Shown: positions 3,036 to 54,986, numbered from the stretch's first letter. The stretch: DNA of 64,000 nucleotides from Malacoraja senta (GCA_038087875.1 JAXLNO010002548.1:1-64000); one strand, 5' to 3'. The notes: a model not told the origin generated them from the letters alone. Numbers and translations are program-made.

Positions 3036-3071
3036 ATCAAAGGTTGCGTAGCAAAAAAGAAAAGGGTGGAT

Positions 3072-4725: not shown

Positions 4726-4829
4726 AAGACTGCGTCGAAACGGGCTTTTGGGCACAGCATGCCCCATCTACATTAGTCCCAACTCCCCACGCTTGGCTCA
4801 TAACCCTCTAAACCTATCCTATGCATGTA

Positions 4830-5412
4830 CCTGTCCAATTGTATATTTATTGTTATGATAGTACCTGTCTCAACCTCCTCTGGCAGCTCGTTCATATACC
4901 CACCACTCTTTGTGTAAAAATGTTATCCCCAGGTTCCTATTAAATCTCCACACTCACCCACCTCTCACCGTAAATCTATATCCTCTGGTTCTCGAGTCCC
5001 CTATTGTGGGCAAAAAACTCAAGCGCATTTACCTGATTGATTGCTCACATAATTTTGTAAACCTCTTTCAGATCACCACATCCTTTGCACTCTAAGGAAT
5101 GAAATCCATAACCAGGGGCCACATTTCCAGAACCAGGGACCACAGTTTAAGAATAAGGAGTAAGCCATTTAGAACGGAGACGAGGAAACACCTTTTCTCA
5201 CAGAGAGTGGTGAGTCTGTGGAATTCTCTGCCTCAGAGGGCAGTGGATGCTTTCAAGAGAGAGCTAGATAGGGCTCTTAAAAATAGCGGAGTCAGGGGAT
5301 ATGGGGAGAAGGCAGGAACGGGGTACTGATTGGGGATGATCAGCCATGATCACATTGAATGGCGGTGCTGGCTCGAAGGATCGAATGGCCTACTCCTGCA
5401 CCTATTTTCTAT
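4830..5412. mobile_element. Two CR1 3'-end fragments (4830-5097 minus; 5100-5412 plus)
   Basis: HSLRIRSKPFRTETRKHLFSQRVVSLWNSLP motif and the CR1 3' UTR GATGATCAGCCATGATCA..AATGGCCTACTCCTGCACC. Confidence 0.8.
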
Positions 5413-6699
5413 TGAAATCAGAGCCTTCTCAACCTCACCCTCCCTGAACATAGACTCAGTGACTTGCAGAACAGTTCAGCATTGGAACAGGCCCTTGGGG
5501 CCACACCTTCTGTTCCAAACGTGATGCCAAGTTGAACTAATCTCCTCCACCAACACATGTTCCATATCCATCCTTTCCCTGCATATCTATGCCTTTCTAA
5601 AGACTTAAAATGCCACTATCAAGTCTCCTTGTAAATCTTCTCTGGACTCTTTCCAACTGGTGTGTTAAAAACAACGTGCATGAAGAATTCAGTGTGTCAG
5701 GCAGCATCTGTGGTGGGAATCGACTGACAACGTTTTGAAGTCACCAGTCTGAACAAGAGTTCCAGCCTGAAATGTCGTTGGTTCATTCCATCCCACAGAT
5801 GTTGCCTGACCCACTGTTCCTCCAACAGTTTTGATCAACGATCCAACATCTGCAGTTTCTAGTATCCCCAGAGATCTGTTAACTGTTACCATTCATTTGC
5901 CCTATTTTATTACATTTTGTATTACATTCTGTTAAATTATGTTGCAGTCTTGGAAATGTTTTCACCTCAGCTGCAAACCTGCATTCCTAGTGTACATTGC
6001 TACTTTAATCATGCTAAATTATGATCACTGCCATCAAAACACCTCATCACTACCACTACAATACTACTCCCATCTTGCTGCCAAGCAATACCCACCATTT
6101 TCTATACAGTCGCCTTAATACTATTTCTTAATTAATTTGAGAACCTCTGCACTCTGCTTCAGTGACAGATAATATTAAGTGTAAATTCACAACTATTTAT
6201 TGTTCTGGGGTGGGTTATTTTGCACCATATAAACAGGCCAAAATATTTCTCCTTCCGTATCCTAAGTTTATTTGATATACAATGATGAATACAAAACAAT
6301 GGATCATTTAAATGTTTACTGTGCTGATGGAGACCATTCATCCTATCAGGCCAATGCTACCTCTCTACTGGAGAAAATCACTTGTTCAACCCCAGCCCTT
6401 AGACTGTAGTTTTGCATGTTTTTGCTCACAATTAGTTTATCCAATTCTCTCTTTGTGATGAAACATAAATAGGATTCGGATCGATGAACGGAGAAAGAAA
6501 ATTTCAAGGGTACAAATGACTATCTTTATTACATCAAATTACAAGACAAAGCATTACAAAGCAACGAATCTCATGGCTTTCAGCTCAATGTGTTAAATGA
6601 TAGAAGCCGTGGCAAATACCATCAAGTCTCACAGTCTTCTGCCCATTAGAGACTCCTATTTATGATGGCTGGTATAGAGATCTTGCGGGCCCAGCCACT

Positions 6700-7100
6700 G
6701 TCCTTCAAAGGTTCTGCATTAAATCAAGCACCGAGCTATTCTTGCATGTCTCAGAGAAAAGAAAGGTTTAACTTCTCCTTTAGCTACACTAAATATCCTT
6801 GTAGGCTGCTCCATCATTTCCAGTTATTCGAAGTGAGCCCTCAATCATCTAATTGTTCCCCAAAGCCAGCCTACTTGCTTACCATAAAGTGCAGTTAGCA
6901 GAAAATGTCATCATAGGTGAAAACCCCGTTTACCTTTTCCAATGCACTAAGGGCATAATGGAGCCAATTACACAACATCTACGTGCCATACACTTGACAT
7001 TCCAAACGCACGTTGCATATAATTCCTTGTCCGCTCTCAAACCCTCCAGCAAAGTGAGCAGCCTCCCTATCCATTCTTCCCATCAAAGATTGATAATTTT
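6700..7100 (-). pseudogene. Ancient degenerate LTR-retrotransposon (Ty3/gypsy-like) RT fragment
   Basis: QRAFGMSS (~6990-7018) lies ~30 codons before GVFTYDDIF (~6903-6930), the expected PFG-to-YxDD spacing; heavily decayed. Confidence 0.45.
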
Positions 7101-7527
7101 CCAGAGCTCCAAGAACTTAATATGTGATTCACCACCCTCTGACTCTAGAGATTCCTCCTTATCCCTTTCTAAAGATACATCATGTTATTTTGAGAAATGT
7201 GCTTGCCAAGACCATGGCATCTGCAGTTTTAGTCTCCTGATCTTAGGAAGATTGTTCTTGTTATGGAGGGAGTGCTGTGAAGGTTGATCAGATTTCAGGA
7301 ATGGGAGGACTAATGTATGAAGGGCGATTTGGGCGATTAGTTTTACATTGTGATTAGGACCATTCAAAATCAACTACAACATTCTTATGGGTCTGTGCAG
7401 ATTCAAGAGAGTCAAGAGTGTTTTATTGTCATATGTCCCAGATAGTACAATGAAATTCTTACTCACTGCAGCACAATGGAATATGTAAACATAGTACATG
7501 GTAAACAATATGAAAAACAAGAAAGAG

Positions 7528-7657
7528 NNNNNNNNNNNNNNNNNNNNNNNNNNNNNNNNNNNNNNNNNNNNNNNNNNNNNNNNNNNNNNNNNNNNNNNNN
7601 NNNNNNNNNNNNNNNNNNNNNNNNNNNNNNNNNNNNNNNNNNNNNNNNNNNNNNNNN
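7528..7657. other. Assembly gap (130 N)
   Basis: Run of N. Confidence 1.
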
Positions 7658-10150
7658 GGAAATCCGGTCAGTTCAGGACCCAGTGGTCACAATCTGATGA
7701 TCAGGCTTCAAGTTGAGATGAAGAGCGATTACTTCTCCCACAGAATGATGAACGTGTGGTATTTTATACCACTGGAAGCAGTTGAACACAGATCATTAAA
7801 TTTATACAAGGAGTTATATGTTATTTGTATGGTCAAAGGATCAGAGAAATAAAAGGATCAAGGTATACATTTTAGGTCACAATTGATCACATGGAATAAT
7901 AGTTGAGGCTCAAATGCCTGAATTCCAATTACTTTTATATTCTGCATTTCAACATTTTTGTATTTATCGTGGCCACATTTCCTCTGCATCGAAGAACATG
8001 ATAACTGGGATGCTTAAAAGGAACCGAGACCCTAGTGCCAATGCCTTTTTGCAGATGAATACATTGGTTTGGTGTTCACAAAGCGAGGACAAATCAGAAG
8101 TAATTTTCTGAACACGCCATCCATTTCTATTTCAATGTGCTTACCCAATAATACTATATTAATCTATATTAAAAAATGTTTGGATAAAATAAACAAAACA
8201 CGGTCATCGAATGTCCCTGGGTAAGTCATCCACCACCTGCCCTCCACCCCTTTGAGAAGTGGCTGAAGGGTGATATTAAAATACATAAAGCTTTTAAATG
8301 AATCACTATGGTGAAAACATTTCCACCATAAAATCCAGCAGGGAATTCTACAGAGAATGCTCCCTCTCCTCCCACCCAATACAGGTGAGAATGAGGATCC
8401 AGATCAATGAATTGCATTTAGGGTAAGGCTGGGCAAACACAAAAGAGAAAAGAACAGTCGGTTTTACATTGGAAAATCCAGCATAGACTTGCCAACCATG
8501 TTGCAGATAGCATAAGGTGGGAAGAGGCTCATGTGGACCATATGCACCAGTATTGGCAGGATAGGCAGAGTGGCCTGTTCCTACACACTTGTCTCCTCTA
8601 CAACCTTGTATTACTTTGACTGCCAATTCATTTTTGATCATTTTGTTCCCATTCATTCTTTAAAAAATACAAAATCAACTTTGACGTAAGATAACTGTGA
8701 TTGATGCTGTTGCAAATAAATGGAGGCAATACATTTTCTTAACAACAATTTAATTTTGCGCCTTGCATATTATATCTTTCATATTATATCTTGCATATTC
8801 CATATATCTTGCCTTTACTTCGCAACATGAAGCCACTATAAAACAGGATGCAATCCAATGTGTTTACTTGGATTTCATGCCAATCTATTTCAAAAAATCT
8901 TATACGCAATGGTCTATTCATCAAACACATTCTACAGGCAACTATTATTAGGTGAAATCACCTTGATCACTGAACTTGATCACTGTGCCACTAGTCACCG
9001 TGGACAATTTTATATTCATATGGATGATAAATTCTTTGCATTAGATTAGAAATGTACAAAGTACAAAAAATCAAGACTTTTGACATCATCAAATATACAA
9101 GCGTTATGTAACAACATTTATTTGTGCTGTGTCTCAGACTAAATGCAGTGTTAAAACAAAATATATTCTATCCAATAATGACTGTAGCTAATGGAATCTG
9201 CAACCAAAAACAGAAGACTGAAAGCATTCAATGGCTCAAGCAAAATTATTGGGACAAATGGTTGATGTCACAAATAGGGTCAAGAACCTGCACCAGGCCT
9301 GTGAGGGAAGAGGATGAATTGCCAATATATAGCAATCAGGGAGGGATAGGACAGAGGCTGGTAGATCAAACGTAGAACCAGGTGGGGAGAGGATAATGGG
9401 TAGATGGAAACAGGTAGGAGAGGAGGAGGAAGAGGTGAACAACAGGAGAATAAACTGTTCAAATGAGACAGAGGTTCACTTGCACCTCTTTCAACTTTCT
9501 ATACTGCATTCATTGCTCACACTGTGGAGAAACTAGCTTAGATGTCAACCATTTTGTAGAGCACATCCCTTTGAAGTAAAGATCATCCTGAGATCTGTTA
9601 TATGGTATTTTAATACCCCTTCCCACTCTCACACTGACCCATCTGTCGTTAACCTTGGGCACAGAAAGTTAAGTAAAATATCTGATAATCCACCTGGGTA
9701 ACTTTATGTGAATATAAAGTTTTCACATTTCAGCTTATCCATACCACTGGTGTTCATTTGTTCTCCCACAACCACCCATACACAAACTTTGCTCCACCTG
9801 CCCATCATCCCCTCCCCAGCTGATTACACCTGCCACTTACCAGCCTCTGCCCCATTCCTCCTTCAAACTGTTAGAATCTTCCCATCCTCTCCTTCAATTC
9901 TAATGCAGTGCCTTGACTTGAAATGTTGGTATATGTCATTTGCCTCCACAGATGCTGTTTGACCAAGTACTTCCACTGGCCTTTCTTTAGTCTAAAATTC
10001 TTGTTGGAAATAACCACAAAGTCTTACTCTATCTATAATTGAAACCATTTAATTGGTGCTTAGAGAGCTTTCTAAACTCATGAGGGCGATTGACCAGGAT
10101 TTATTTTACCCAGTGTAGGGTAATCAAGAACCAGCAAAAACAGGTTTAAG

Positions 10151-10792
10151 CAGTGTTCAATGCTAATTTTTTAGGTGTCGGAGCTGTCAAACAGGGGCAT
10201 TTCAGATTTTGCTGGGGGGGGGGCAAGCTAGTCTCCCTAGGGGGTCAAACAAGATTATAGCCTATTACTACATCCCAGTGTATAGCTAGTACATTAAAAC
10301 ATATAATACTTAATTTAATTAGGACAAAATATTGCACGGTTGCACTCACTGATTCTCATGAAATATAATTATGAAGCAAGTAAAGAAAAAGACGGTTATC
10401 ATGTATTTTAACAGAGGTGCCGGCAAGACACTGACTCGCCCTGACTATCCTGCAGCTCTGGGCCTTCAGACACACACTCACACACACACACTCTCACCCT
10501 CACACCCATTCACCTACACACCCACCCACTCACCCACCCACCAGAGTTCCAGGCTCAGCTCCAGGCCCACAACCACAAACTATGCACACATCACATGGTC
10601 TGACTCTGCTGCATCATAGTGTTCCCCCCTCCTACAGGGAACCTCAGTAGTGATGGATCTTCCCTTTACCCCTCTTTTAATCACGGTACCACGACCACAC
10701 ATCCGCTAGTTAAAATTCCACGCTGTTTATTTTTTCTTTAACAGAGGTGCCGGATCGGTGCTCAGGTGAGCTCCGGCAGCACTGCACCCCTG
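10151..10792. mobile_element. Non-autonomous hAT-like DNA transposon inserted in a CR1 3' end
   Basis: Exact 8-bp TSD GGTTTAAG (10143-10150 and 10793-10800); CAG...CTG termini; repeated subterminal TTAACAGAGGTGCCGG; CR1 sequence resumes across the TSD. Confidence 0.75.
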
Positions 10793-11939
10793 GGTTTAAG
10801 GTGAGGAGGAAGATTTAGTAGGAACCTGAGAGGCAACCTTTTCTACTAAGAGGTTACTGGGTGTATGGAATGAGCTGCCAGCGAAGGTAGAATAACAACA
10901 TTGAAAAGACACTTGGACAGGTACATGGATAGAACATGTTGAGAGGAAAGTGGGCCAAACGCTGGCAAATGCGACTAACTTAGATGTAGCATCTTGTTCA
11001 GCTAGGAGCATTAGGCTGAAGTACCTACTTCCATGCTATATGGCTCTATGACTCTTTGTTAGATGAACATAAACATGGCAAATGGAGTTTAATAATGGAA
11101 AATATGTGCTCACACACTCTGGTAAGAGCAATTCAAAGGAAGCTTTTATCTAAATGGAGTGAGATTGCAAATGAGTGGAGTACAAGAGATTCAAGTGCTT
11201 AAATGCAAAACAAAAAGCCAGCAGGTAGATGCAGCACACAACTCAGAAGGTGATTAGCATTCAAAGGTAGGTTACTATTGTAATTATGGTACATGATGTT
11301 GCTAAGGACCTATCAGGAGCACTGTGCACAGCTTGGTCCTCAAATTTAAGAAAGGATATATTAATATTGGATATCAGCTAGAAGAGATTTCTGGAATAAG
11401 CAAGTGTTGCCTAACCATGAATGGCTGAAATCACTGGTTCTGTGTCCCTTGGAGATGACAAGAAACAGAGTTAACCTTATGAATGTATCAAAGAGGCATG
11501 ATGTGGTGGTGAATTGATGGATAATGCGTGGATATATTCTAAAAGAACAGGGAATTGTGTCTTATGTGGAATAAGCACAGTAAAGGAGTTGAGGCCTCAG
11601 TCATATCAGCTGTTATCAACATATATTGCTAGATAGCTCTAATTTGTACAAATGCAGGGCAGTCTATTGAGAATTTCTGTCATGTTTGATAAACTTAATT
11701 TAACTCTTTCCATTTATTTCAGTTCCTGCATTTTAATCACATCCATGAAATCTTCTACTCAGCGATTGGTTAGCAGTGCACGTTCTGCTTTGGTTGGATA
11801 TTTTGATAATCTGAGGGGGGAAATTAAATATTAGACAACAAAGAAATGGCATAGCAGAGAACAGAACTCAGAAAGATGCAACTAGTTTATTCGCTTTAAC
11901 TGTTGATTCATCCCACATAACATCTTCCTTCCAGATATA

Positions 11940-12190
11940 AAGCCACAGCGCCAGACACCTGGGTTTGATCCTGACCACGGGTGATGTCTGTACGGAATTT
12001 GTACCTTCTCCCTGTGACTGCATAGGTTTTCTCCAGGTGCTCCAGTTTCCTCCCACATTCCAAAGGCAGATGTGCAGGTTTGTAGGTTAATTGACTTGTG
12101 TCCCTAGCTTATGTGGGTGATCGTTGGTTGGTGCGGACTCAGTGGGCCAAAGTGTCTGTTTCAATGCTCTCTCTCTAAACGAAACAAAAA
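11940..12190 (+). mobile_element. HE1-like SINE
   Basis: tRNA-like head remnant, conserved core and CTAAAC-type tail. Confidence 0.7.
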
Positions 12191-13149
12191 ACTCAATACT
12201 CCTTCAAATAGTTTCGTTCACACAAGTTCTATGTTATCTAACTTTCGCTTCCACACTAGGATCAAATTACAGAGACCAATTAACCCATAAAACCTGGCAT
12301 CTTTAGTATGTGTGTGAAAACTGGAGGACAGTGGAAACCCATGCGGTCATAGGGAATACATGCAAACTTCACACAGCCGACAACCGAGGTTAGGATTGAA
12401 CTGATGTGTATGACGCATTGAGGCAGCAACTCTATCAGCAGCGCCACTCTGCCTCAGGTTGCATCATGTTCAGCACAAACATTGTTGGACAAAGGACCTG
12501 TTCCTCTATTACAGGGGCATTCCCATTCACCGTAAAATTCAGCGAACTCAGCACCATTGGGTCACTGGAAATATTCCCTCCCTGACCATCAGATCCCTCC
12601 AGATCAGTCGGACAGACACCAGTTAGGCAGCATCTGCCTGCAAATGATTCATGTCCCTCAAACCCCTGCATCTCCATGCACCATGAAGGTGCACTCCAGA
12701 CGCCACCATCCCTGGCAGTGCTTTCCAGGCACACACCACATAGTATGTAATAAAAACTTGCCCTTTTTTAAAAACTGCAGCTTCTACCCTGCACTGAATA
12801 TAATGCAATAATTTAAATGCTATAGTAGGCATTTAGTTTATTGGGATAATTTTAGTCAATTGGGAGGTGTGATTGCAAATCTTGTACAATATCATAAACC
12901 AAGTAAAATGTGACAAAGTCAAAATGGCCAGGCACAAAGAACAGAATAATCATGAACATCAATAACATGTCAATAACTAGACTCTCTTAGTGGCAGCATG
13001 CTGTAAGGTTGCAAACTCGTTTGCTCCCTTAACTTTTATCTTCCACTGACCACTCTTTCAATGTTACTGGTGACTATTTGACTTCAAGACACCGTCTAAC
13101 TGTTCATAAAGTGTTGATAACACTTTTACACGCCTTAATCGTGAAAAGG

Positions 13150-13990
13150 ATGGAGACAAGAAGGAAAGGATGATCCCCAAAGAAGGAACTGGGGAAAGCC
13201 ATAACCACAGCTGCAGCTTCTGATTCCAGCATCATAGAAGCAATATCGAAAATGAACGATGAATTGAAAAATGAGCTGAAAAATGAAATGAAAACAAGAT
13301 TTGGCAGTTTGGAAGAAATGGTGAAAGAAGTTTCGACCAAATTGAAGGAAGTCCAAGGAAAACTGTCTTTGTTACAAGATGAACTTCGTGAACAAAAGGA
13401 TCAAATTGATATCTTGCGCACCCTGGGACAGGAGAGAGATTTGAAGATTGAAAAATTGGAACGGAGAATGAATGAAAACACTCGAGCACTTCAGCAATAC
13501 AAGTCTAAAAATATGGACCTAGAAAACAGAAGCCGTGGTTTGAATTGAGGAATTGTTGGTTTGCCGGAAGGCCAAGAAGGAAATAACATTATAAAATATG
13601 CTTCTAAAATGATAAAGGAAACATTCAACATTGAGCACAATGAAAACCTTCCGTTCATGGATAAGGCACACAGGATTGGGAAGAGATCTGGTAATAAACC
13701 GAGACACTTGATCATTCGGTTTCATTTTTTTCAAATGAAGGAGAATATTCTCCTGGCAGCAAAAAAGTTTGGTGTGGTTGAATATGAAGGATGTAAGTTG
13801 CGGTTTGTCCCTGATTATAGTTATGAGCTTTTGGAAATAAGAAAGACTTTTTATAATGTAATGTCTGATTTGTATAAGAAAAACTGCGCCCAGCTTTATT
13901 ATCACCAGCTAGATTGCGTATTCGGCTTTTCAATGGTAACTTTCGATTTTTTAACAGTCCTCAAGACGCCTCCAGCTTTCTGAAGAGCTA
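13150..13990 (+). pseudogene. L1 ORF1 (coiled coil plus RRM/CTD), disrupted
   Basis: Heptads ELKNELKNEMK..; LENRSR..N*GIVGLPEGQEG; KAHRIG..PRHLIIRF; KLRFVPDYS. In-frame stops present. Confidence 0.88.
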
Positions 13991-14600
13991 CGACGAGGAA
14001 GGGGAGTAATTGATAGCTGATTAAGTTATAATTGGAGATTTACTGTTCCTATTTTGACAACATTTCGTTTGGTAATGATTAAGAATTTAACTGGACGAGT
14101 TGTTTTTCTTTTATATATATTCTTTTAAGAATTTCTTTGTTAATTCGTGTTCCCCTGTCGTTAGACAAACTAAGAGAACGCAGTTCTTGTTTTACATATT
14201 TTGACCTTGGATAATAATAAGCAGCATTCCATGCCAGTCTGTATTTTTTTCTTCTTCTCTCTCAAAGAGATAATAACGAATGTGTTATGACGTAGTGGTT
14301 AAACATTATTCTTTTTATGCTGAGCGCTGTTACTGGGAGAGATGGGATTGGGGAGGGGATTAGGTAGTTTGCTGACTGTCTTTTGGTCAGTTTGGGGTTC
14401 TACAGGGGTGGGAGGGGGGAGGGGGGAGGGGTCTTTTGTTCCCTATTTAGTGATCTCCATTTGTGCAAATTCTGAACTACAAAATTGGCTGAAATGTCGT
14501 CACTTCTGGCTCCGCCCTAGATTTTTCTTCTTCCAGTATTATGAACTTTTAGGCTTCAAGAAATTAACCCATTACATCCCACATGATTTTTACAAGCAAT

Positions 14601-17600
14601 ATGGATAAAGTTACTAATTTCCTTTCATGGAATGTGAATGGCTTGAACCATCCCATTCAGAGGACATTTAAAAAAAAGTTCTTCACAGACTAAATGCTCA
14701 GATAATTTTGTTCAGGAAACTCATGCAAGGCAAGATGACAAGTCACGATTTTTCAAGTTTTGGAGAGGACAGCAGTTTCATTCAAATTCACAGGCTAAGG
14801 TGAAAGGAGTCTCTATTTTTATTGACCCCTCAATTCCGTCTGTTCACTATGAAACAATTTTCTGATCCATATGGCAGATTCTTGGTGATTACCGGTGTCC
14901 TTTATAGGCAAAAAGTCACTATGCACCAAATATTGATCACCCTGAGTTTTTTAAACAGTTAATTGCATCCTTTCCTAATTTAAATGAACACTTTTTAATA
15001 ATGGGTGGAGACTTCAATTGCTGTTTGATAGGTCTACATCTGATCATGTGCTTCCAAATAAATCAGCTAATTTTATTAATTCTTTTTTACTTGACTCGGG
15101 AATGTTAGAAATTTGGAGATTCTTACACGCAAATGACAACGAATTTCCATTTTTCTCTCATGTATATCATAGTTATTCTAGGATCGACTATTTTATACTA
15201 GATTCTCGGCTAGTTCCATCGGTCATTGCATGTGAGTATGATACAATTGCTATTTCTGATCATGCACCAGTGAAACTATTGATCAAACTACCTGATTCCA
15301 AGTTTAGTGCTAAACAATGGCGATTTAATGCTACTTTGCTTCAAGACTTAAACTTTATTAAGTTTATGAAAGATCAGATTGCTTTTTACTTCTTGACAAA
15401 CTCTAATGAGGAGATATCCAATGGTATAGTTTGGGATGCTTTTAAGGCATATATTCGTGGACAAATTATTTCATACTCCGCGGGATTAAAAAAAAAAAAA
15501 ACACAAAAAGAAATACGCACATTGGCTGACGAGATTAAAGAAATTGATACAAAATATTCAAAAGCTCCTAGTTTAGAGCTCTATAAGAATAGAGTTGAAC
15601 TTCAATTGAGATATGATTTGTTATTAGTATCACCGATTGAGAACCAGTTACTTAAAACCAAAAGTAAATTTTATATAAATGGCGAAAAATCTGGTAAATG
15701 ACTTGCTAATCAATTGAAAGCAGTGTCGGCCAAGCGTCAGATTACTAAAGTGAGTAAATGGGATGGTACAGTAACTGTAGACCATGACAAAATTAATAAA
15801 TCCTTTCAGGAATTTTATACCTCCCTATACCAATCAGATTTTCCTACTGATTCCAATATAATGCATGAGGTTTTAAAGAAACTGAACTTACCACATTTAC
15901 CATACAATGAGTCTCTGTTGTTAGATGAACCCATCACAGAAGAAGAAATACAGAAAGCAATTTTTTCAATGAATTCTGGTAAAGCTCCAGGTTTAGATGG
16001 GTTTACAGTAGAATTTTTAAAGTATTTCTCAAATTTATTGTCTCCATGGCTATGCAAGGTATTTAAAGAAGCCTTTTTAAGGAATAGATTACCACAATCT
16101 TTTTATGAAGCTTCTATTTCTTTAATTAAAAAAAAAGATAAAGACCCTACTGAAGTGACATCATATAGACCTATATCAATGTTAAATGTAGATTTTAAAA
16201 TTCTTTCCAAAATATTACCTATGAGATTGGAAAAGATTTTACCGCAAATTATCTCTGAAGATCAGACAGGTTTTATTAAAAATCGTTACACATTCTTTAA
16301 TGTTAGGAGATTAATAAATATTGTATATACAGCGTCTAATAAAACCCCAGAATATGTCATCTCACTTGATGCCGAGAAGGCTATCGATAGAGTAGAATGG
16401 AATACTTATTCAATATACTTGAAAAAGTTAAGAAATTTATCTCTTGGATCAAACTGCTATATCTTATACCTCAGGCTTCTGAATTTACTAATAATCAGAG
16501 ATCCCCTTTTTTTCAGGCTCTTTCAAGGTACTAGACAGGGCTGTCCCTTAAGTCCTTTACTATTTGATATTGCTTTGGAAACTTTAGCCACTGCTATTAG
16601 GGAATCCCCTAATATTTTTGGTATTGTCCGCGGGAATAAGACACATAAGCTATCTCTTTATGCAGATGATCTGTTATTATTTATTTCTAACCCTGAGAAA
16701 TCTATTCCGGCAATAGTAGCATTACTTAATCAATTCAGTAGTTTTTCTGGTTATAAACTAAATCTTAGTAAAGGTGAGCTTTCCCATTAAATAATTTTGT
16801 TTCGAGTTATGGACAGTTTCCATTTAGATTGACTACCGAAAGTTTTACTTATTTAGGTATTAAGATCACCAAGAAACACAAGGATTTATTTAAAGCTAAT
16901 TTTATTCCTTTAATTGACCATATTAAACATCAGTTCACTAAATGGTCACCAATGTCCTTATCCTTAATTGGCCGAATCAATGCTATTAAAATGTCCATTT
17001 TACCTAAATTTCTGTATTTATTTCAGACGATACCAATTTTTATTGCCAAATCTTTCTTTGATATTATAGACTCTAAAATTTCTTCATATATATGGCAGAA
17101 TAAAAATCCCAGACTAGGTAAAAAATACCTACAGAAATCAAAAAAGTTGGTGGTTTGGCATTGCCGAACCTTAGACTCTACTATTGGGCAGTCAATGTTC
17201 GTTATTTAACATTTTGGACAAAAGATTTAGAAGATACCCAATGCCCTGGATGGATAAACCTAGAACGTGATTCCTTACAAGGGCTATAATTGGCTTTTAT
17301 TCTAGGGACCTTGTTACCTTTTACAATTACGAGATTGAATAAATATATGACGAACCCAATAATAAGACATACGTTCCGAATACGGTTTCAATTTCGTAAG
17401 TTTTTTGGACTATCTGATTTTATCCAAATTTCTCTTCCAACCATCTAGTACTGATCAAGTTTTTTTGTTATGGAAGAGGAAAGGATTAGTAGCTTTTCGT
17501 GATTTGTTTTTGGAGGGTTGTTTTATGTCTTTCGAACAACTCTCCAATAAATATAACTTACCTAATTCACACTTTTTTAGATATTTACAAATTAGACAGA

Positions 17601-18337
17601 AGGAACTACCCCTTTTTCCGCTACCACATCAACCCGAAATTTTGGATTTTTTTTTACAGTTGAACCCTTATCAGAAAGGATTAATAGCGACTATTCATGA
17701 GTTGACTTTAAAATTACAAATAGATACATTTGATAAAATTAAGAATGACTGGGAAAGAGAACTCCAAATTTCTTTATCTATAGAGAAATGGGAGAGGATC
17801 CTTCAATTAGTTAATACTTCCTCAATGTGTGCAAGACACGATTTGATACAATTCGAGGTGGTCCACAGAGCTCATATGTCAAAAGATAAGTTAGCTCATT
17901 TTTATGGTCATATAAATCCTACCTGTGACAGATGTAACTCTGAAGTGGCATCACTGACCCATATGTTTTGGTCCTGCCCTCTTTTGGAAAAATATTGGAA
18001 ATAAATTGTTGATACTATTTCGGTAGTCTTAGGTATAGATTTACAACCTCATCCTATTACTGCAATTTTTGGGTTACCAATGCTAGATTCTATTCATTTG
18101 TCCCACTCCGCCCAACGGTTGATTGCTTTTACCACATTAATTGCCAGAAGATTTATTTTCTTTAAATGGAAAGATTCCAACCCTCCGACCACACTCCAGT
18201 GGTATTCTGAAACGATATCATGTTTAAACTTAGAAAAAAAATCAGAAGTGACATTGTTGAACCCTTGGTTAAATTTGATAAGACTTGGGGGAAATTTATT
18301 GAACGCTCTCATACAACATAAATTGATCCCTCTTTAA
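14601..18337 (+). pseudogene. L1 ORF2 (APE endonuclease, RT, C-terminal Cys motif), frameshifted
   Basis: MDKVTNFLSWNVNGLNHP; YSRIDYF; ISDHAPV; KAPGLDGF; SYRPISMLNVDFK; GTRQGCPLSP; LYADD; CDRC..HMFWSC. Confidence 0.93.
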
Positions 18338-18804
18338 CCGTTATAAAAAATATTTTACCTTCATAGGGTGGAACGAACTTGACGACAAACAAACTTAAAT
18401 TGTTGAATTTCTCAGTTCAGATTCGGTTTTGCTGTTTTGTTTTATTTATTTATTTTATTTTTATTCTTATTTTATTATTATCAATTAAAAAAAAAAAATT
18501 TAGTTTAGGGGGGTTTAGTTTTTTCTTTTTCTTTTTGTCTTTTTATCTTTGCTTTTTTTTTAACATTTATGTTTCCTTTTAAAGATTGAACTATATTTAC
18601 ATAGAGACCGGGAGGTCTATATTCATTGTGTATTTTGACACTGGTCTCATATTAGGTTATACCTGTTATTAATGTGTTTAATCCTGATCCCTATGTATCA
18701 ATACCATTGTTATGTTTATCATTATTCTTTTTGCTCTGTTTTTTATGTTTTATTTTTGTTTTTGTTTTTTGGAAAAAAAACAATAAAAAGATTTTAAAAG
18801 AAAG

Positions 18805-19320
18805 GTACTGAATAAAAAAGTTGGGATGTTCTGCTACAGTTGTACAAGATGTTGGTGAGGCCACATGTGGAGTATTGTGTTAAGTTTTGGTCACTCCACT
18901 ATCGAAAGGATGTCATTAACAGGGCCTGTGATTCAGGGAGAGGCAGAGAATGCTTGGACTTTAGTCCTTGGCACGCAAGAGGCTGAGGGGTGATCTTATA
19001 GAAGTTTATAAAATCAAGGAGCATAGATAGATTGAATGCACAGAATCTTTTAACCAGCCTTATGTAATCAAGAACCAGAGGACTTAGGTTTAAGGTGAGA
19101 AGGAAACGAGTTACTCGGAACCAGAGGAAGTGGAAATATGGAAGAACATTCCAGGGGAAGTAGTTGAGGCAGGTATTAAAAAACATTTTAGAACACACTT
19201 GGACAGGTACATACTGTAGATAGGAAAGGTTCAGTGAGATATGGGTAGTTTAAACATGGCATCTTGGTTGACATGGCCAAGTTGAGGCAATGGGCCCATT
19301 TCCATGCCGTATGACTCTAT
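18805..19320 (+). mobile_element. CR1 3' fragment
   Basis: LYKMLVRPHVEYCV and a CR1 3'-terminal region. Confidence 0.7.
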
Positions 19321-21264
19321 GGCTCCGTGGGCCTGAAAAGCCAATTCTTTTCCGTTTCACTGCTAAATGATAGTTAATCACCCTCACTAATAGTGACCAC
19401 AATTGCAGACCCATGACCATGACTGGTTTACAGTGATAATAAGCTAACCATTGCCTCAGTTCAAATATGCATGTCGTTGATGTTCAATGACTAAATTGTT
19501 GCTGCATTCTTAGTTTTGGCAAGGTGAGAAATGGCTTGGTTTTGATCTGGGTGCTGGAGCTGTTAGACATCTTGATACCATGAAAGCAGAACCTCCGTTT
19601 CAGGAAATATACTTGCTGAATGGTGTCTCAGACCAGCAATGCCGGGGAACATTGTATTTTGAAGAGGAAATATTAGACAACCAAGGCCAAGTGCTCGAGA
19701 AAGCAGCACGTCTGTTATTTCAATGAAAACTCTGCTCTTCATCCATCTTGTCATTTTGATCACCCAGTTTATTTTATAATATTGTACAACATATGCAATC
19801 AATTCTCAGTTTATGACATTTACAGCTGGCGTGAAGATGCATCATTCAATACCTTCTGTCTTCCAATTTAGTTTATTTAATAGAAAGATTGAAACATAAA
19901 AAATAGGTGCAGGAATAGGCTATTCGGCCCTTTGAGCCAGCACCGCCATTCAATACAATCATGGATGATCATCCAAAATTAATACTCCGATCTGGCTTTT
20001 TCCCCATATCCCTTGACTCCCTTAGCCCTAAGAGCTAAATCTAACTCTCTCTTGAAAACAGTGATACAGTGTGTAAACAGGCCATTTGTGCCACCAAATC
20101 CATACTGACCAGCAATCACCCTTTCATAATAGATTTCCCATGCACCCCTACACTATCAGGGTGACTTACCGAGGATGATTACCTGCACACCTGCTCATCT
20201 TTGGGATATGGGAGGAAACCGGAGCTCCCTGAGGAAGCCCACATAGTCACAAGAGAATGTGCAAACTCCACGTAGACAGTACCCGAGGTCCAGATTGAAC
20301 CTGGGTCTCTGGCGTTGTGAGGCAGCAGTTCTACCAGCTACACTACCATGCTGCATTACGTACAAACTCTAAATCCTACACTGACTTTCCCTTCCACTTG
20401 TTATATTCAACACAATAACTCCTTTACACAGGAGGAAAGTGAACTGCAATTCATCACCAGAATATATCTTACAACAGTATGATCACAGGCAAGAAACCAG
20501 TGATATAGATGACTGAATTTACACTAAAACCCTGATCATCCAGCTCTCTTGGGATTTGGGAAATGGTAGATTTTAAGGACTGCTGCATGTTACTCCAAAC
20601 ATACTTTAATTCAACTAATTTAAGCACTTGTTGAGCAAGTCAGTGGTTGAGGTGCATCTGTACACTACTATCAGACTTAAGCTGAGGAATACCCATTGTA
20701 ATTTGCCTGAAGAGTCTCGAACCAGATTGTCACCTATCCATGGTCTCCTGGGATGTTGCCTGACCTGCTGAGTTACTCTAGCACTGTCCCTCACAGTCTT
20801 TCCCAATCTTGTAAATCAAAAATAGTCAGCATCTTTCTACATCATAAAGAGTCATGGAAATATGCAGCATACAAACATGGCCTTTGTCCCACTGACCTGC
20901 ACCAACCATTCATGTACACTAATCCTACATTTGTCCCACATTCTCATCAGCTCTCCCCACATTGTATCATGCACAATCTAGGGGACAACTAACCTACCAA
21001 ACAATGTTTTGGGGATGTGGGAGGAAACCAGAGCACCTGGGGAAACCCACATGGTCACAGGAACAACATGCAAACTCTACAGATACAACAGCCGATGTTG
21101 GTATTTAATTCAGGTCTCTGGCTCTGTGCTGTCCTGTTTCACATTGTAGTCCACCTGTCATGTTGTTGCTCATTCATTCGGCTTTCCACCTTGAACCATT
21201 TCTCCCACTACTCACATTCCCACTTAATTTGGAGTTTTCCAGCAACAGCGGCCTTGGTGGCAGC

Positions 21265-21558
21265 TACTGTGTGCAGCGGTAGAGTTGCTGCCTTACAGTG
21301 CTTGCAGCACCGGAGACCCGGGTTCGATCCCGACTACTGATGCTGTCTGTACAAAGTTTGTACGTTCTCCCCGTGACCGCGTGGGTTTTCTCCGAGATCT
21401 AAGGTTTCCTCCCACACTCCAAAGACGTACAGGTTTGTAGGTTAATTGGCTTGGTGTGCGTGTATAGGATAGTGTTAATGTGCGGGGATCGCTGGTCAGC
21501 GCAAACTCGGTGGGCCGAAGGGCCTGTTTCGTTACTGTATCTCTAAATTAAACTAAAC
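21265..21558 (+). mobile_element. HE1-like SINE, near full length
   Basis: A-box GCAGCGGTAGAG, B-box GGTTCGATCCC, conserved core, (CTAAA)n tail. Confidence 0.85.
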
Positions 21559-21634
21559 AAAACTAGTAAACGATAAACTGCAACCAATCTGCCTCATAGC
21601 TGACTTGGATCATGAACAGTGCGAGCCCCCAACA

Positions 21635-21945
21635 GAGCAGCACAGTGTCACAACTCGTAGAGCTGCTGCCTCACAGCGACACAGACCCGGGTTCAATTTT
21701 GACCTTGAGTGCCATCTATGTGGAGTTTGCACGTTCTCCGTGTAACCGCATTGGATCCCTCCAGGGGCTCCGGTTTCCTCACACATCCTAAGATGTGTCA
21801 GTTTATAGTTTAATTGGCCATTTTAAATTGCCCCTAGTGGGTGGGTGACTGGATGAGAAGGTGCAATGAGATAGAATTCATGAGAACAGGTGAACAGGAG
21901 GTTGGCATGGACTCGGTGGGCCGAAAGGACTGCCCCCATGCTGTA
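21635..21945 (+). mobile_element. HE1-like SINE, older copy
   Basis: Same architecture, more diverged. Confidence 0.75.
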
Positions 21946-22202
21946 CTTTTTAATGACTCAATGATATCTCTAGGATTTGGTGCAGTGAATCCATAATGTT
22001 TAACTTTTTTTTTTACACTGAATTCACAATTTTCAAATATCTGATCATCAGAAACATTTAACAACAGCACAAAGGCTAGTTGACAGTGGTGACTGTCGAG
22101 GCATTTCATGTGTAGCTGCTGCCTTATCCTACTTGAGATCGATCATTTCTTCAAGCCCAATACTTTTACTAGCAACAGTGCATCACAATTTTTCCATCTT
22201 AC

Positions 22203-22310
22203 CTCTCCTCTTTTTTCTCCACCAAACAATTACTGCCAAGACAATAGCCAGCAATATCAGCACACACACGGCAATAAGGCCTATGTGCCTGTCTTTCTTC
22301 CTATTTCCTT
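22203..22310 (-). CDS. MHC class I-like heavy chain: connecting peptide, transmembrane and stop-transfer exon
   Basis: Acceptor TATTTTTCAG, donor GTAAGA, 108 nt, phase 1/1, in frame with the alpha3 exon. Translates (E)GNRKKDRHIGLIAVCVLILLAIVLAVIVWWRKKRR. Confidence 0.85.
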
Positions 22311-24987
22311 CTGAAAAATAAGAATGCATAATTTTACATATCATTTGTTAAGCTGTGCAGCTAAATAGATGGGCACTGTCTGAAGACTTCAGGGTGAAGA
22401 AGGGTCTCGACCCAAAATGCCACCTATTCCTTTGCTCCAGAGATGTTACCTGACCCGCTGAGTTACTCCAGCATTTTGTGTCTATCTTTGGCACTTTTCA
22501 AGGTATATAATAAATATGTTGTTTTGAATCACGGAGATCTGCAACATGGCAAAGGGGCAATATCTGTTCTGTACAACTCTATGATCTATGGCACCATCAC
22601 AGCCACAACTTAATTCATGAAAGAAGGTGAATTGAAAGCAGAAAGCTTTAACCCTATATAAACTAACATCTGTTTTGGGAAAAATGCTGGATTCCTTTCA
22701 GTAATGGCAGAACATTTAAGTAATAACAAAACAATAAAGTGCATTAACAGGGCATTAACAGGAAAATTGTAGAAAGAAAGAGATGCAGATACTGATTTAC
22801 ACAAAAGCTTTAGTTTAGTTTATTGTCACGAGTACTGAGGTACAGTGAAAAGCTTTTGTTTCATGCTAACCAGTCAGTGGAAAGAATATACATGATAGAC
22901 ACAAAATGCTGGAGTAACTCAGCGGAATAGGCAACATATCTGGCGAACATGGACTCAGTCAGAAGGATCGTGACCCGAAACATCACCTATTCCTTTTCTC
23001 CAGAGATGCCGCCTGACCAGCTGAGTTATTCCAGCAATTTGTGTCCATCTTCAGTGTAAACCAGCATTTGCAGTTTCTCCCTACACATGGACAGGTGACA
23101 TTTCGTTTACGGACCCTTCTTCAAACTTTGTTTGAGAAATTGATTAGAATTCTTTGAAAATGCAACAGGAACCCATAGACAATGTATATTTGAGCAGCAG
23201 TAGTTTGCAGGTGTGCACAGCCTAAAATTCAAAAACAAAATGATGGAAAAGCAGAATAGGTAACAAAATTGGAATGAGAAAGAAAAGAAATACAATATAT
23301 TGTAGAGATCCAAGCGTTGTGAACAAATCAATGTTTTTTTTAAAAGAAATACAGTTTTGGCACACTCGTGTTTAGTAAGGACTTGAGCAAAGTTCCTGCC
23401 GTTGTTATCGGGCACACCAGTTGACTGGCGACTGATTCATCACCAACTCCCACCAAAACCCTGTCATGTGATAGTCCCAGCTCCCCTGACGAGGGTTCGA
23501 GCAATAAGTGGCCTGACCACCAGATGTCGCCAGAATATCTGGATTTTCATAAGATATCTGATCAAGTGATGCAAAGGCACATGGCTTATGACATTGGGGG
23601 TAATAATTAGCATGAATGGAAAAACAATTAAGAGCAAGCAGAGTCTTAAAGGAGTGTTCAGGTTGGGAAACTGCAACTGCAGGATGGGAATCAATGCAAG
23701 AAAGTGAACTACTTATCGTTAGTATTAAGAGCAGATGAAGGGACTGATGGCGCTGTAGCCTAGATTGCTGATAATACATAGATAGGTTGAAAATTAAGTT
23801 CTGGAGTATGTCAACAGTCTTCAGAGTGAAACATCAGATTCCTTATTTGTGCATTGTTCGAGGGAATCTTCAAAAGTGAACATTTGTGTAGGTTAGTGCA
23901 GCATACCTGGAATCAAACTAGTACGATCGCTGTTTGTCAGGCAGTTATATTTTTCGTTGCTGAATCTGTAACTTGCGTCAGGGAACTTACTTCATTAGGT
24001 TTAGTTTTATTAATGTCAGATGTTTCAAGATACAGTGCAAAGGTTTGTTTTGTATGCTATCCAAATAAATTAGATAATACTATAGATAAATAAAAAACTC
24101 AAAAACAATAGATAGAGCAAAGAGGAGGATACAGAGTACAGAATATAGTTCTCAGCATTGTAACACATCAGTTCCATGGACAATGTTCAATGTTCAATGA
24201 GGTTGAGGTGAATCGGGCATTAAACCTACATTATGGAAGGACCCTTCCGAAGCCTGTTAACAGGTGGAAAGGGGGTGTTCCTGAGTCTGGCAGTGCTTAT
24301 TTTCAACTTTCAGTACCTATTGCCTGATGGGAGCAGGAAGGAGGAATGTGAGAAAGGTGGGATAAGTCTCGTTTTCCAAGGGTACCTGGTGTAGATTGGG
24401 TCAATACTGGGAAGTCTGGGCTGTGTGATGATCTTTAACTCTTTATATATTCTTGCAGTCTTGGGCAGTGCAGTTCCCAAATCAAGATGTGATGCAACCC
24501 AACAACATGCTTTCTCTAGCGGCATCTATAGATGTTTGCTGGAGTCACCAGAGACATGATGAATATCCTCAGTCTCCTGAGGAAGTAGAGGTGTTGGTGT
24601 GCCTCCTTGGCTATGTGGCCAGTCCATGACCGAATATTGGATATATTCATGCCAAGGAACACGAAGCTCTCAATCATTTCCACTTCAGACTATTGATTCA
24701 GATTGGGGCATGTACTCCCCCAGTGCCTTGCTGTTAATCACATCATGAGGAAAGATTCATTTTATATTTAAACATACCTTTCATGGATATCAGTTCCACC
24801 ACTGAGAATCCCAAATACTCCTTCCTTGTATATTAGTTATTTATTTACTTACTTTTAATATATTTTCTGTTGACAAAGTCTTCTGCTCATGTGGAGAGTG
24901 GGTACTGATTACGTGATTACTTAGAGCAACACCACTAAACAAAGAAAGTTTAAGCATCTTGGAATGTGGGATGTACTACATGGGATG

Positions 24988-26031
24988 TAGCAATGTCACA
25001 AAATTTTGAGATTTTAAAAATCAAGTCTGCAATTTATCCCATCAGATAAAGCATAAAAAGAAGTTTAATTTGACACCTAATCCACTTTCATATCTTCTGT
25101 GTTAAAAAAGTTTGGCCATTTTCATACTCGGAAATTAGCATCTTGTTCCCTATTGCTTTTCCATTGACTTAAAACAAAAGCTGTGATCAAGGACAGTCAA
25201 AAGCCCATAACTTTCTTAAAAATTAAGAGAACTTAATGACATTTTCAGTTATTATAGATTGAAGCATTCTGAAACAAATATGAAACAATCTTACTTGGAT
25301 GACCTGAAATTAAAGCATATAATTAGTTAGTTACCCAATTGTAGCTAATTACAAAATTCAATTACTAGATCTAAATATCTGTCCATTTCTTAAGAAAAAG
25401 TTAACATTTTTAAAAAGCCTAAGTGTCCAAATAACATTCACACAAGAATTCACAATATAACATTATTTTTAAATCTCATTGTCATTAATTTATAGGCCAA
25501 ATGGAAGGAATTTAGTGTTTAATTCCTGTAAATTAATGGCCATTTAAATCATCTTGCGAGTGGGATTTTGTGGAACGCGCTGGTTTGGAACGCTGCGGTT
25601 GCACTGAATTAAATCCCAATATCGGCAGGAAAAATACTGCCGGTTGGTATACTTAAATAATCACATTTTCGCAACTTGAAATTTTTATTAAAGGCATCCT
25701 AAGAAGCAAGTTTATATGAAAAAATAAATGGTGTACCTTGCCTTGTCCCGTGCGTGAAATCCGTCCCCGTTGACTGCGTTTACGGCATTTGAAGATGATT
25801 TTAATTTTACTCCACCAATTAAATTATAAAGCGCTAATATTAATAAACTTAATAAAACGGCAGTCAAAGCGATTTTTCTTCATCAACTATTTAGCCTGTT
25901 CAAGATCGTTTAGAACAGGCTGCCGAAATATTGCATTTTAAACCCGCCCCCCTCTCAAAGGCGCCAAAGTCGCGCACACGGGCAGTGACAGAACTGCAGC
26001 GCCGCTGAAGGTAAGTTTTGTAACATACCTA
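24988..26031. mobile_element. Putative non-autonomous DNA transposon in the alpha3-TM intron
   Basis: Imperfect 18-bp TIRs (TAGCAATGTCACAAAATT vs revcomp TAGGTATGTTACAAAACT, 14/18). GATGTAG is directly repeated at both ends. No ORF. Confidence 0.55.
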
Positions 26032-26106
26032 GATGTAGTCACAATGATTAAAATGGAAACAACAGAAGATAATGATTATCTATGAAAGAATATTTAACGT
26101 TCTTAC

Positions 26107-26373
26107 CCCAGATGATGATCTTCCCACCGGGCAGGCTGCTGTGATTGACATGACAGGAATACTGTTTCCCATCATATGGATCATACTCAAGGACAGACCT
26201 TAGATGATATGTTCCATCGTTGTTGGGTATGACCCCAGAAGATTTCGTCTCAGAGACATGTTGACCATTCTGCAACCAGCTGACATTGATGGCCGGTGGG
26301 TAAAATCCAAACACAGTGCAGTACAGGACTGAATGATCATCAGGGCAGGCAGCGAGAGTGACCTCAGGGGAAA
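26107..26373 (-). CDS. MHC class I-like heavy chain alpha3 (Ig C1-set) exon
   Basis: Acceptor TTGTAG, donor GTAAGA, 267 nt, phase 1/1, open. Translates SPEVTLAACPDDHSVLYCTVFGFYPPAINVSWLQNGQHVSETKSSGVIPNNDGTYHLRSVLEYDPYDGKQYSCHVNHSSLPGGKIIIW. The short A-B loop and PNNDGTY (no class II beta Trp) favour class I. Confidence 0.9.
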
Positions 26374-27226
26374 CTACAAGGCAGTAAGATGGTTATTTTC
26401 ATCTTCAGTAAAACTTGCACAGTCACCCACCACAAAATATTCTTCAGTCTACTACAACAACCAAGTTACTGTCCACATCTGCCCCATTTTGCCTCTTTCG
26501 GCACCATCAACAAAACACGTGGTTTAAAAGGGATTGTATGCTCCCTGTTAAGACAGTACACAAGAACGTTTGAAAGTATGCACCATTAAATTCAGGAACA
26601 GCTTCTTCCCCACTGTTATTGGACTACTGAATGATTCTCATGTAAGATAAGATGTTGTCCTGATCTTCCAACCAATCTCACTGTGATCCTTGCAACTCTT
26701 TTTGATCTGCACTTTCTCTGTAACTGTAATGCTATGATATTGTAACCCGATATTCTGCACTCTGAGTAGTTTTCTCTTTGCATTGTTCTACTTGTGGATG
26801 GCTTGATTGCACATGTGTAGTATGATCTGATTGGATAACACACAGAAAAAACTTTTGACTATATCACAGTTCACGTGACAATAATAAACTAATACCAACG
26901 GCAAATCTTTTCACTAGGGCATATTATTGACAATAATAAATAATTGACAAGTTACAAAATGAGGGCCAATTGGGGAGGGGACAAGCTTAAAATTGGCCGT
27001 ATTTTCACTCCTCTTCAATAAGAGATAAAAGAGACCAGTCATTTGTTTACATAATCTCTTTTTGCAGAGTGTGGTCATTCTCTGGCGCCAGAGATTTGTG
27101 AAGACAAAATCATTGGAAGTATTTAATATGGCGGTAGTTAAACTTTTGAAAGATTGGAGAATTGAGTGCAATGAGGAACTGGCACCGAACCGGAGTTGAT
27201 GCCTGAGGAACGTCAGCCATGGTCAT

Positions 27227-27770
27227 TGTGAGATACAAAAATCACAAACGCTTTTAGAGACAAAGTCAGCAAAGAAGCTTTTAATTCAAAATCATATTCT
27301 GCAGAATAGGTGCCTCTCCTCTGATGTCCCCTGGAGGCACACCGAGGATCGGGATGACTTCTATCTTTATACATTTAATGGGTATCATTGTCACACCCTC
27401 ATCCCTCCCCATTGTGCTTCTTCCAATCATAACATAAAGCCCACATTCCCACGAGAACGTCCTGGAACGTCCACCCGACGTCAAAGACACCTCCCATATC
27501 ATGCATCGCATGTGCATTTAAATGAGACATCTTGTCATAGTGGGTGTGTGTACATATTCATGTAAGTTCATTGCCCATGCGCACAGAGTGTTTCTTCTGA
27601 CCTTTACCCTAGTTCTATCCTGGACGGTCTCCTTATCTTCTCTGTTCTCATCCTTGAAAAAGTCACCATCTGTACTTGTCCTTCACTCCCCCTATCCTCC
27701 CTACTATACTCCCTACTATACAAAGGGTTCTTGTCTAAATCAACTTATACCTATTAACCCCTTTCTCACA
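27227..27770 (-). repeat. 3' LTR (U3 type B)
   Basis: Inverted termini; degenerate PPT at 27771-27785; R/U5 homologous to the 3072-3627 LTR. Confidence 0.9.
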
Positions 27771-27819
27771 ATCCACACTTTTACTATTGTTACTGCAATC
27801 TTTGATTTAGACTATCTGC

Positions 27820-28720
27820 CCCTTCTCTAATGCTAGCAGCAGAATCTTCGCCTCTCTCTATCTTCCTCTCATTCGATAGACAGGGAGGTGAGACCTGCTA
27901 GGGCTCTCGATACTGACCCATCAGGAGCAATGTTGTTGGGGATGAAGGTGCAACATTGTTCCCCAAACATTACACACACCCCTCCCTTCTCAGCCAGTAG
28001 CATGTCTAAGGCCATGCGATTTTGCCAGGCCATTAGGCTGGTATCTGTCAGTTGTTCCGCTAATCCTTCAACCGCATCTCGAGTGTAATTTATAAAGCGT
28101 TGTTGATTGTAGTATAGGTAGTTGATCCAGTCCACATTTTTATTAAGTGTGGACCACCAGAAGAGTATGGACTCAAAGCCCGCAGCTATCTGGTTTCTGG
28201 CTTTGAATTCATCGGGTACCCCTCTTGGCACCCCTATCGCATCTATATATATGTGTGTGTCGAAGGGTCTGTCCTTCGGCCCTTTGTATTGTTGTTGCTA
28301 GCCGGGAGTAGGTAATGATAACTCTGGCAGGTCGCATCCTTTGGTAGGATGGGATTCGTGAATAGCTGTAGTATACATGACATAGCCCCAGGTGTCCTAT
28401 CCCAATTCAAGGGAAATGGTTCTGGAACCAGCTGAGGCTTAGCTCCGGCACAGGCGTAGCAATTGGTGTGTTGCATACTCCTGGCCGTGTACATCATCCA
28501 GGCAAGCCAGGTGTTGGCTCCCTTCCCTCCTGTAGGTATTCCCTCCTCATATAATTGCCTTAATTCTGTTTCTCCTGCTACTATCATTATCTTCAAATCC
28601 TTAGGCTCATTCTCCCTGTTCTATCTGCACATCCTTCCACTTTCCTGCATTTGAACACTCTGTATGCTTACATAGTTGGGTAACCACCCAACACACGACC
28701 CACCAACACGAAATCTTCAT
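27820..28720 (-). pseudogene. env: Family A env with multiple internal deletions
   Basis: Retains the signal peptide, the SU CYAC block and the TM ectodomain with ISD and CX6CC. Lacks most of the Ig-like domain, the furin site and the membrane anchor present in the 1135-3035 copy. Confidence 0.88.
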
Positions 28721-29105
28721 TTTTCCCGCGGGTTCTTGTTAAATATTAAAGTCAATGGTTCCTCTCCTTTGCGCACAGTCCACGGGCTGATATTGTTTGG
28801 TGGGGCCTCCACAGGACCCTTAAATCGGCTTGCGTGTGTCCACCCTTTTTCTTTTGTTCGTACTGCTGTCTCGGTGATTAGTAACACCAGGTAGGGTCCA
28901 GTCCACTTAGGTTGCAGCTTTTCTTCCTTCCATGATGTTACAAGATCCCAGTCCCTCGCTTTCACAGAATGGATTGGAAAGTCGAGATGGGGACTCTGTG
29001 CCAGCAGCCCCTTGGTTCTTAATTCTGTAAGAGAACGAGATACTGCCAGTAAATAGTTCCTTAGGAATACATCATTCCCTTGTATTTGTTGGGACCCCTT
29101 CTATC
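28717..29105 (-). pseudogene. pol: Family A integrase C-terminal fragment
   Basis: KEEKLQPKWTGPYLVLLITETAVRTKEKGWTHASRFK, as at 830-1134. Confidence 0.85.
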
Positions 29106-32811: not shown

Positions 32812-32829
32812 TCCCGAGACGAGCCCCCA
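32812..32829 (-). promoter_or_regulatory. Primer-binding site, tRNA-Pro type
   Basis: Minus strand TGGGGGCTCGTCTCGGGA versus canonical TGGGGGCTCGTCCGGGAT, adjacent to the 5' LTR. Confidence 0.85.
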
Positions 32830-32834
32830 AAAAT

Positions 32835-33362: not shown

Positions 33363-33440
33363 GCTGATCATCCAACTCAGTATCCTGTACCTGCCTTCTC
33401 TCCGTACCCCCTGATCCCTTCTGTGGCAGAGAGTTCCATC

Positions 33441-46845: not shown

Positions 46846-47121
46846 GAAGAGTCATTTTATTTTCAACTCAGAGTTTTTAGTTTTTACATTGCTGCTTTGC
46901 TTGGGAGTTGTATCATTATAAGTTTAGTTGTATCATTATACGTTTAGTTGTAGCATTATAAGTTTAGTTTTGAATCCTTATTTTGCTATATGGTTAAGAA
47001 TATGTGACTGATAACTGGACTGACTGACTGAAGGATGGTTAACTTGAGTGAATAGTTGATTAAGTCAATTAAGTAAGAAATGAACTTTTTGTAACCCTTT
47101 GCATTTTCCAGATATATTCAA

Positions 47122-54948: not shown

Positions 54949-54986
54949 GTTAGCCAACTTCAGAATTCAAAAAGTGAGGAGAAATG

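Follow-up and report, generated by a model that had tools for sequence, protein, structure and literature searches.

A probable pseudogene fragment of the MHC class Ib gene UGA, one of about 100 copies in a skate genome

The window, a 64,000-nucleotide stretch from the skate Malacoraja senta, carries the alpha3, transmembrane (TM) and cytoplasmic tail exons of the nonclassical MHC class I (MHC-Ib) gene UGA. By far the most probable explanation is that the 5' half of this copy was lost at the long terminal repeat (LTR) of an endogenous retrovirus (ERV), leaving what is likely a pseudogene fragment, and that the copy is one of approximately 100, likely the outcome of recent tandem segmental duplications involving a ~100-kb unit with two class Ib genes.

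Exons in the window

The alpha3 exon (26107..26373, minus strand, 267 nt) encodes an immunoglobulin C1 domain, with a Pfam C1-set match at an E-value of 2.9e-20. The exon for the connecting peptide, TM segment and stop-transfer sequence (22203..22310, minus strand, 108 nt) encodes W-EGNRKKDRH, a TM segment with one Gly, and then RKKRR. Both exons are open and phase 1/1, with AG/GT splice sites (AG/...G/GTAAGA in the latter), and sequence and Pfam match confirm the C1 domain and TM that the sequence-only reading had assigned to them. Both occur in the same order, at 89% identity, in annotated skate class I proteins; thus, the pair is not a chance association. The window alpha3 displays the P57/G61 pattern (IPNNDGTY) that is given as a criterion for class I alpha3 domains in PMC8713811, and W61 (LMSDGDWTY) is seen instead in a class II beta2 exon from this genome.

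The tail lies on its own exon (11770..11810, minus strand), which contains a YxxPhi motif and is found as the same exon in other copies. It begins AG/AT TAT CAA, reads YQNIQPKQNVHC followed by a stop codon, and is in frame with the alpha3 and TM exons, giving the joined C-terminus ...WWRKKRR-DYQNIQPKQNVHC and stop. Polyadenylation-type hexamers are located just 3' of it (ATTAAA at 11737 and AATAAA at 11718). The earlier reading had proposed either a separate tail exon or read-through from the TM exon; the former is correct and the latter is not, although the read-through peptide GKMEKL and its stop are present in the sequence.

In relatives, three full-length spliced proteins (P0023-25, on contigs of 1.4-3.5 kb) read W/EGN and RR/DYQNI at the exon boundaries. 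The predicted junction from 26107 to 22310 also found agreement in a presumed-RNA run of a relative, in which a contig ends at 26107 with eight loose nucleotides identical to the start of the TM exon; this read support amounts to one 8-nt overhang in one contig of one relative. Coverage in that run is limited to the exon.

In line with the decayed ERV and LINE surroundings that had been noted, remnants of ERV env and pol, LINEs and SINEs surround the exons. ERV remnants (env, integrase and LTR copies) occupy window positions 1-3600, 27227-33400, 45550-49012 and 60000-62975. A fragmented, nearly full-length LINE (13174-18334, plus strand; ORF1 and ORF2 pieces) resides in the TM-tail intron and is common to a complete UGA copy on contig C3642. 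Positions 51359-57902 hold a direct duplication of ~3.5 kb, with identical ORF translations at 53447/56917, 53881/57351 and 51753/55221.

Assignment to UGA

The window exons belong to MHC-Ib UGA. Among solved structures, the best match of the window alpha3 is chain A of PDB entry 9CH4 (116 bits, versus ~65 for single alpha3 domains of MR1 or class I), entitled "Crystal structure of shark nonclassical MHC CLASS I, UGA." The nearest proteins are class I chains of the skates Rhinoraja, Leucoraja and Amblyraja (89-91% identity), and alpha3 identity to skate UGA is 86-89%. In Verissimo 2023 (PMC10751288, supplementary file 10), the sequences that these skate proteins match are Lerinacea_UGA and Gcirratum_UGA. 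A 24-row alpha3 tree places the window inside the skate UGA clade (100/99), itself nested in batoid UGA (100/98). Long branches make the deep positions of its UDA and class II rows unreliable, and published UAA, UBA, UCA, UFA and UHA sequences were compared by eye, outside the tree. The PDB matches and the tree agree with the earlier identification of a class I heavy chain of a nonclassical lineage, rather than class II, beta2m or the W category. However, the lineage had been called possibly uncharacterised, and 9CH4, the letters of supplementary file 10 and the tree identify it as UGA. The open-access literature yielded no primary paper dealing with UGA/9CH4 or with the number of UGA copies in skates.

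Class II and the W category are ruled out in that the orthologues are three-domain proteins, the TM has one Gly, and the neighboring gene is a three-domain class I gene. In HLA numbering, Y123, T143 and Y159 are classical peptide-anchor positions. Classical class Ia (UAA) is ruled out by the changes Y123>A, T143>F and Y159>L in the alignment of PMC10751288 and by the near invariance of the copies. Six of nine classical peptide-anchor positions are kept in UGA.

Truncation at an ERV LTR

Positions 4729..27226 (minus strand) are collinear with the complete copy on C3642 at 94-96% identity, introns included, and represent the duplicated 3' half of the gene. Gene homology stops where the CA end of an ERV LTR (27227..27770, minus strand) abuts the alpha2-alpha3 intron. 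An env remnant follows the LTR (27872-28620), and further copies of the LTR are present at 3266-3627, 32835-33362, 61143-61404 and 62236-62516. Collinearity with C3642 never resumes beyond 27226, and the 72.8 kb upstream on the 99,156-bp contig contain no match to leader, alpha1 or alpha2. These three exons are present in other copies (for example, C3642 and C4261), and nearly all complete copies have alpha2 at a distance of 6-10 kb on the 5' side of alpha3.

The same break is found in 7 of 101 copies (the window copy and those on six sibling contigs), none of which has an alpha1 or alpha2 match in the 73-246 kb upstream. In the 10-20 kb of upstream sequence examined, identity between the window contig and its six siblings is 97-99.7%, and these siblings have 89-246 kb upstream free of alpha1 and alpha2 matches; the siblings of the window copy are 98.9-99.6% identical. 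The window alpha3 exon contains no Met. The window's three-copy clade is distinguished by two non-synonymous changes of its own (R>C and D>N), and the truncated subfamily as a whole has three synonymous and two non-synonymous changes, too few to show relaxation.

The window copy is likely a pseudogene fragment that most likely makes no product. Its clean exons had been taken to indicate a recently functional or still active locus, but with leader, alpha1 and alpha2 missing it is probably inactive. The clean exons reflect young duplication (as indicated by the sibling identities) together with older purifying selection on the family, rather than a present function of this copy; its youth is the main cause of their clean appearance.

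Amplification of UGA

After filtering, 113 alpha3 loci were recovered on 103 contigs, 97 of them full and open (the best 150 of 354 candidates were scored). The corresponding tallies are 54 alpha2 loci, 31 open (124 of 124 candidates scored), and 80 alpha1 loci, 62 full and open (142 of 142 candidates scored). Probes for TM, tail and leader exons returned 116, 118 and 75 candidates, with 40 scored for each. Rows left out of the tally (37 of 150 for alpha3, 51 of 105 for alpha2 and 47 of 127 for alpha1) are either the second half of a match that had been split or matches to other lineages at 39-45% identity. The 101 near-full alpha3 copies represent 62 distinct exon sequences; 90 have an AG acceptor and 97 are open.

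When 100 copies were compared over 1.1 kb, single-linkage clustering at 100, 99.5, 99 and 98% identity yielded 86, 57, 42 and 22 clusters, with a median pairwise identity of 96.4%. Thirty pairs are identical over this length, and one cluster at 99.5% or higher has 30 members; haplotigs may be among these pairs and in this cluster, for which the other explanation is a very recent burst. A repeat segment of ~1.06 kb in the alpha3-TM intron (24976..26031) occurs in 29 of the 101 copies and is thus a marker that copies are distinct loci. BLAST identities of copies to the window are ~95% in the intron versus 97.5% in the exon; an intron pi of 0.082 was set aside as inflated by non-homologous inserts. 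Within C3642, the unit of UGA plus its sister gene repeats with a period of ~102.5 kb.

The window contig and nearly all other UGA contigs are small, unlinked contigs; the 78 contigs of known length total 16.9 Mb (median, 148 kb). Of 46 loci with alpha3 only, 25 have less than 35 kb upstream. Because many contigs are too short for the ~60-kb gene, intact copies are undercounted. Word depths over the exon in one read run reach hundreds to thousands and do not represent a copy number.

Contig C9 carries two UGA copies, one with full layout at 40.6 Mb, and class II beta2 at 39.4 Mb. The other copy, at C9:245,794, is a sibling of the truncated window copy. It lies 0.25 Mb from one end of this contig, which is 42 Mb long and bears the MHC, and 40 Mb separate it from the full-layout copy, in which alpha2 has a 1-bp deletion. 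Off the MHC chromosome, a lone frameshifted UGA alpha1 is present as an MHC-Ib fragment on a 90.8-Mb contig (C3:84,288,907-84,289,155). UDA-like alpha3 and alpha1 exons occur on an unplaced 503-kb contig (C2694:286-297 kb).

UGA is described as single- or low-copy in the review PMC12562908, and other elasmobranchs have one to three UGA protein clusters per species; in Rhinoraja, a single chromosome of 41.5 Mb bears 10 annotated UGA proteins. The expansion appears to be skate-associated and variable among skates. The copy number given here comes from the assembly, and the new element is most likely a 50- to 100-fold amplification, mostly decayed, of the UGA-plus-sister unit. No paper on such an amplification was found in the open-access literature.

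A sister gene adjacent to UGA

A compact second class I gene is located ~30 kb upstream of the UGA leader on the same strand (C3642:109.5-113.3 kb, and ~47 other loci). Among its 47 full alpha3 copies, 31 contain stops, and the domain ends in VPQ instead of W. This gene resembles UGA in its groove motifs and in its best PDB match, which is again 9CH4. However, it is only 33-39% identical to UGA, forms a separate clade (99/99) and has no Tyr motif near the TM. Orthologues, named "MR1-like" by NCBI, are found in Leucoraja, Pristis, Mustelus, Hypanus and Mobula, and in Leucoraja the two genes share a 127-kb scaffold. Comparison by eye with the 26 class I queries of PMC10751288 (supplementary file 10) revealed no counterpart. 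The gene represents an apparently unnamed sister lineage of UGA, possibly named in the literature, that is conserved in sharks and rays and would predate their split.

In Leucoraja, NCBI annotates three isoforms (P0015, P0016 and P0018) in which UGA is joined to a GPR139-like GPCR encoded downstream. The window contig and C3642 at 95-220 kb contain no GPR139-like gene.

Decay and past selection

Among 101 alpha3 copies, 11 have lost the acceptor and 4 are not open; TM exons are damaged in 13 of 63. Indels were found in all five short alpha1 exons and all six broken alpha2 exons that were checked. Ten loci have open alpha1, alpha2 and alpha3 in order, and six of these (C2656, C2386, C4261, C4500, C5103 and C1653) also have intact splice sites and an intact TM exon on one contig. 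The tail is open in the four of the six whose fetched stretch includes it, and the leader, scored with GC donors as not intact, is verified for C4261 only.

Alpha1 accompanies a broken alpha2 at fifteen loci, and at eleven others alpha1 and alpha3 occur without alpha2, with a 5.8-kb deletion in the two examined. The youngest cluster has 30 copies, of which 23 could be classified; all but one of these have no usable alpha2 (11 of deletion type and 11 frameshifted or partial). Alpha3 in this cluster is mostly open, and alpha1 is open in all 19 members that hold it. At C342:114,684-133,293, a leader and an alpha3 exon are 18 kb apart, with no alpha1 or alpha2 match in between.

Family-wide, pN/pS is 0.51 for alpha3 (31 synonymous and 53 non-synonymous changes; p 0.0026), suggesting that many lineages were under selection until recently. 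The values are 0.36 for alpha1 (16 open copies only) and 0.66 for alpha2 (30 open copies only, not significant), and the groove domains are nearly invariant among copies. These patterns point to past purifying selection, with no sign of groove diversification.

Tail motif and predicted function

The UGA tail (RR-DYQNIQ) resembles the tails of human CD1b (RRRSYQNIP) and pig CD1d (RRRVYQNIQ) given in Table 2 of PMC5002277. YQNI comprises the same four core residues as in human CD1b, and the YxxPhi motif is kept in most elasmobranch UGA orthologues. In addition, lipid binding of UFA/UGA is cited as a personal communication in the review PMC12562908. By sequence, however, UGA is unlike CD1, and its best non-shark PDB matches are MR1 and classical class I, ranked above CD1. 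A genome search with Pfam MHC_I_3 (PF16497) gave 0 matches, and the controls likewise gave 0. An AF2 model of Amblyraja UGA has a pLDDT of 61, and its groove is too poor to inspect. By analogy, UGA may undergo endosomal recycling and be loaded with non-peptide ligands. It would then work like CD1, with no affinity to CD1 by sequence.

Origin of the window copy and alternative explanations

The identity as UGA, the break, the sibling copies and the inventory of copies with its lesions are observed, and from them we infer the following steps. A provirus in sense orientation would have inserted in the intron between alpha2 and alpha3 of one copy. Leader, alpha1 and alpha2 would have been lost either by recombination in the ERV cluster or at a duplication boundary inside it. 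The truncated unit would then have been copied to at least seven places. Three-domain class I heavy chains pair with beta2m. In a family that most likely evolves by birth and death, such a beta2m-associated chain would be the product of the intact minority, and most copies carry frameshifts, splice-site losses or exon deletions. The intact chain may recycle through endosomes via its YQNI tail and present lipid-like ligands in a CD1-like manner, a function taken from the review PMC12562908.

It is conceivable that the 5' half of the window copy is situated past the end of the contig, which is 72.8 kb upstream of alpha3. The window exons might then belong to an active, complete UGA gene whose 5' exons are separated by a giant ERV-filled intron, in keeping with three open exons, canonical splice sites and polyadenylation-type signals. 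This is highly improbable, because siblings with the same break extend up to 246 kb upstream without alpha1 or alpha2 matches, and the upstream part of the intron never resumes beyond the break. It is also very unlikely that a low-copy locus, inflated in the assembly by haplotigs or uncollapsed contigs, accounts for most of the ~100 copies. Although nearly all copies reside on small contigs and 30 pairs are identical over 1.1 kb, diploid duplication could at most halve the count, and a median identity of 96.4% with 42 clusters at 99% and 22 at 98% argues for many loci. So do subfamily-specific insertions, deletions and frameshifts, the presence of several copies per contig, and the 10 annotated proteins on the Rhinoraja chromosome.

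A further alternative is that the amplification is adaptive and that many copies, including alpha2-less or LTR-driven truncated ones, give functional products, such as two-domain alpha1-alpha3 chains. All exons are phase 1/1, so skipping of alpha2 keeps the frame; the youngest cluster has lost alpha2 by two lesion types with alpha1 open throughout; and human HLA-G2 is described as an alpha2-deleted isoform. However, open alpha1 and alpha3 exons are expected even without selection at identities of at least 99.5%, the near-invariant groove domains argue against diversification, and the window's own subfamily has neither leader nor Met. We consider this alternative unlikely. It is similarly doubtful that an ancient two-gene class Ib cassette (UGA and its elasmobranch-wide sister), amplified 50- to 100-fold in skates, has in its youngest burst twice lost alpha2 while keeping leader, alpha1, alpha3, TM and CD1b-type tail, and thereby come to encode genomically fixed, HLA-G2-like alpha1-alpha3 chains.

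Implications

The preferred reading, a truncated UGA copy within a mostly decayed amplification, can be compared with known systems. UGA of other elasmobranchs (nurse shark 9CH4 and Lerinacea_UGA) has the same alpha3, TM and tail, and a full-layout copy resides on the MHC chromosome here (C9). However, elasmobranch UGA is low-copy according to PMC12562908, whereas approximately 100 mostly broken copies are present here, and the window copy has no 5' half. Shark UBA/UEA and Xenopus XNC/uba likewise form multicopy nonclassical class I clusters with pseudogenes, but these are another lineage with diversified genes, in contrast to the near-identical young copies of a two-gene ~100-kb unit.

The window itself is probably an ordinary pseudogene fragment, and its interest for comparative immunology lies in the context. 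Cartilaginous fish have two candidate counterparts of CD1, one of which is UGA, and here UGA appears ampliconic over more than 100 contigs. Thorny skate was left out of an MHC reconstruction on account of unplaced MHC scaffolds, and amplification of this kind would help explain why a skate MHC proved too fragmented for reconstruction. The copies would also offer a live birth-and-death series, with ERV-bounded truncations, of a gene that carries the trafficking motif YQNI, as in CD1b.
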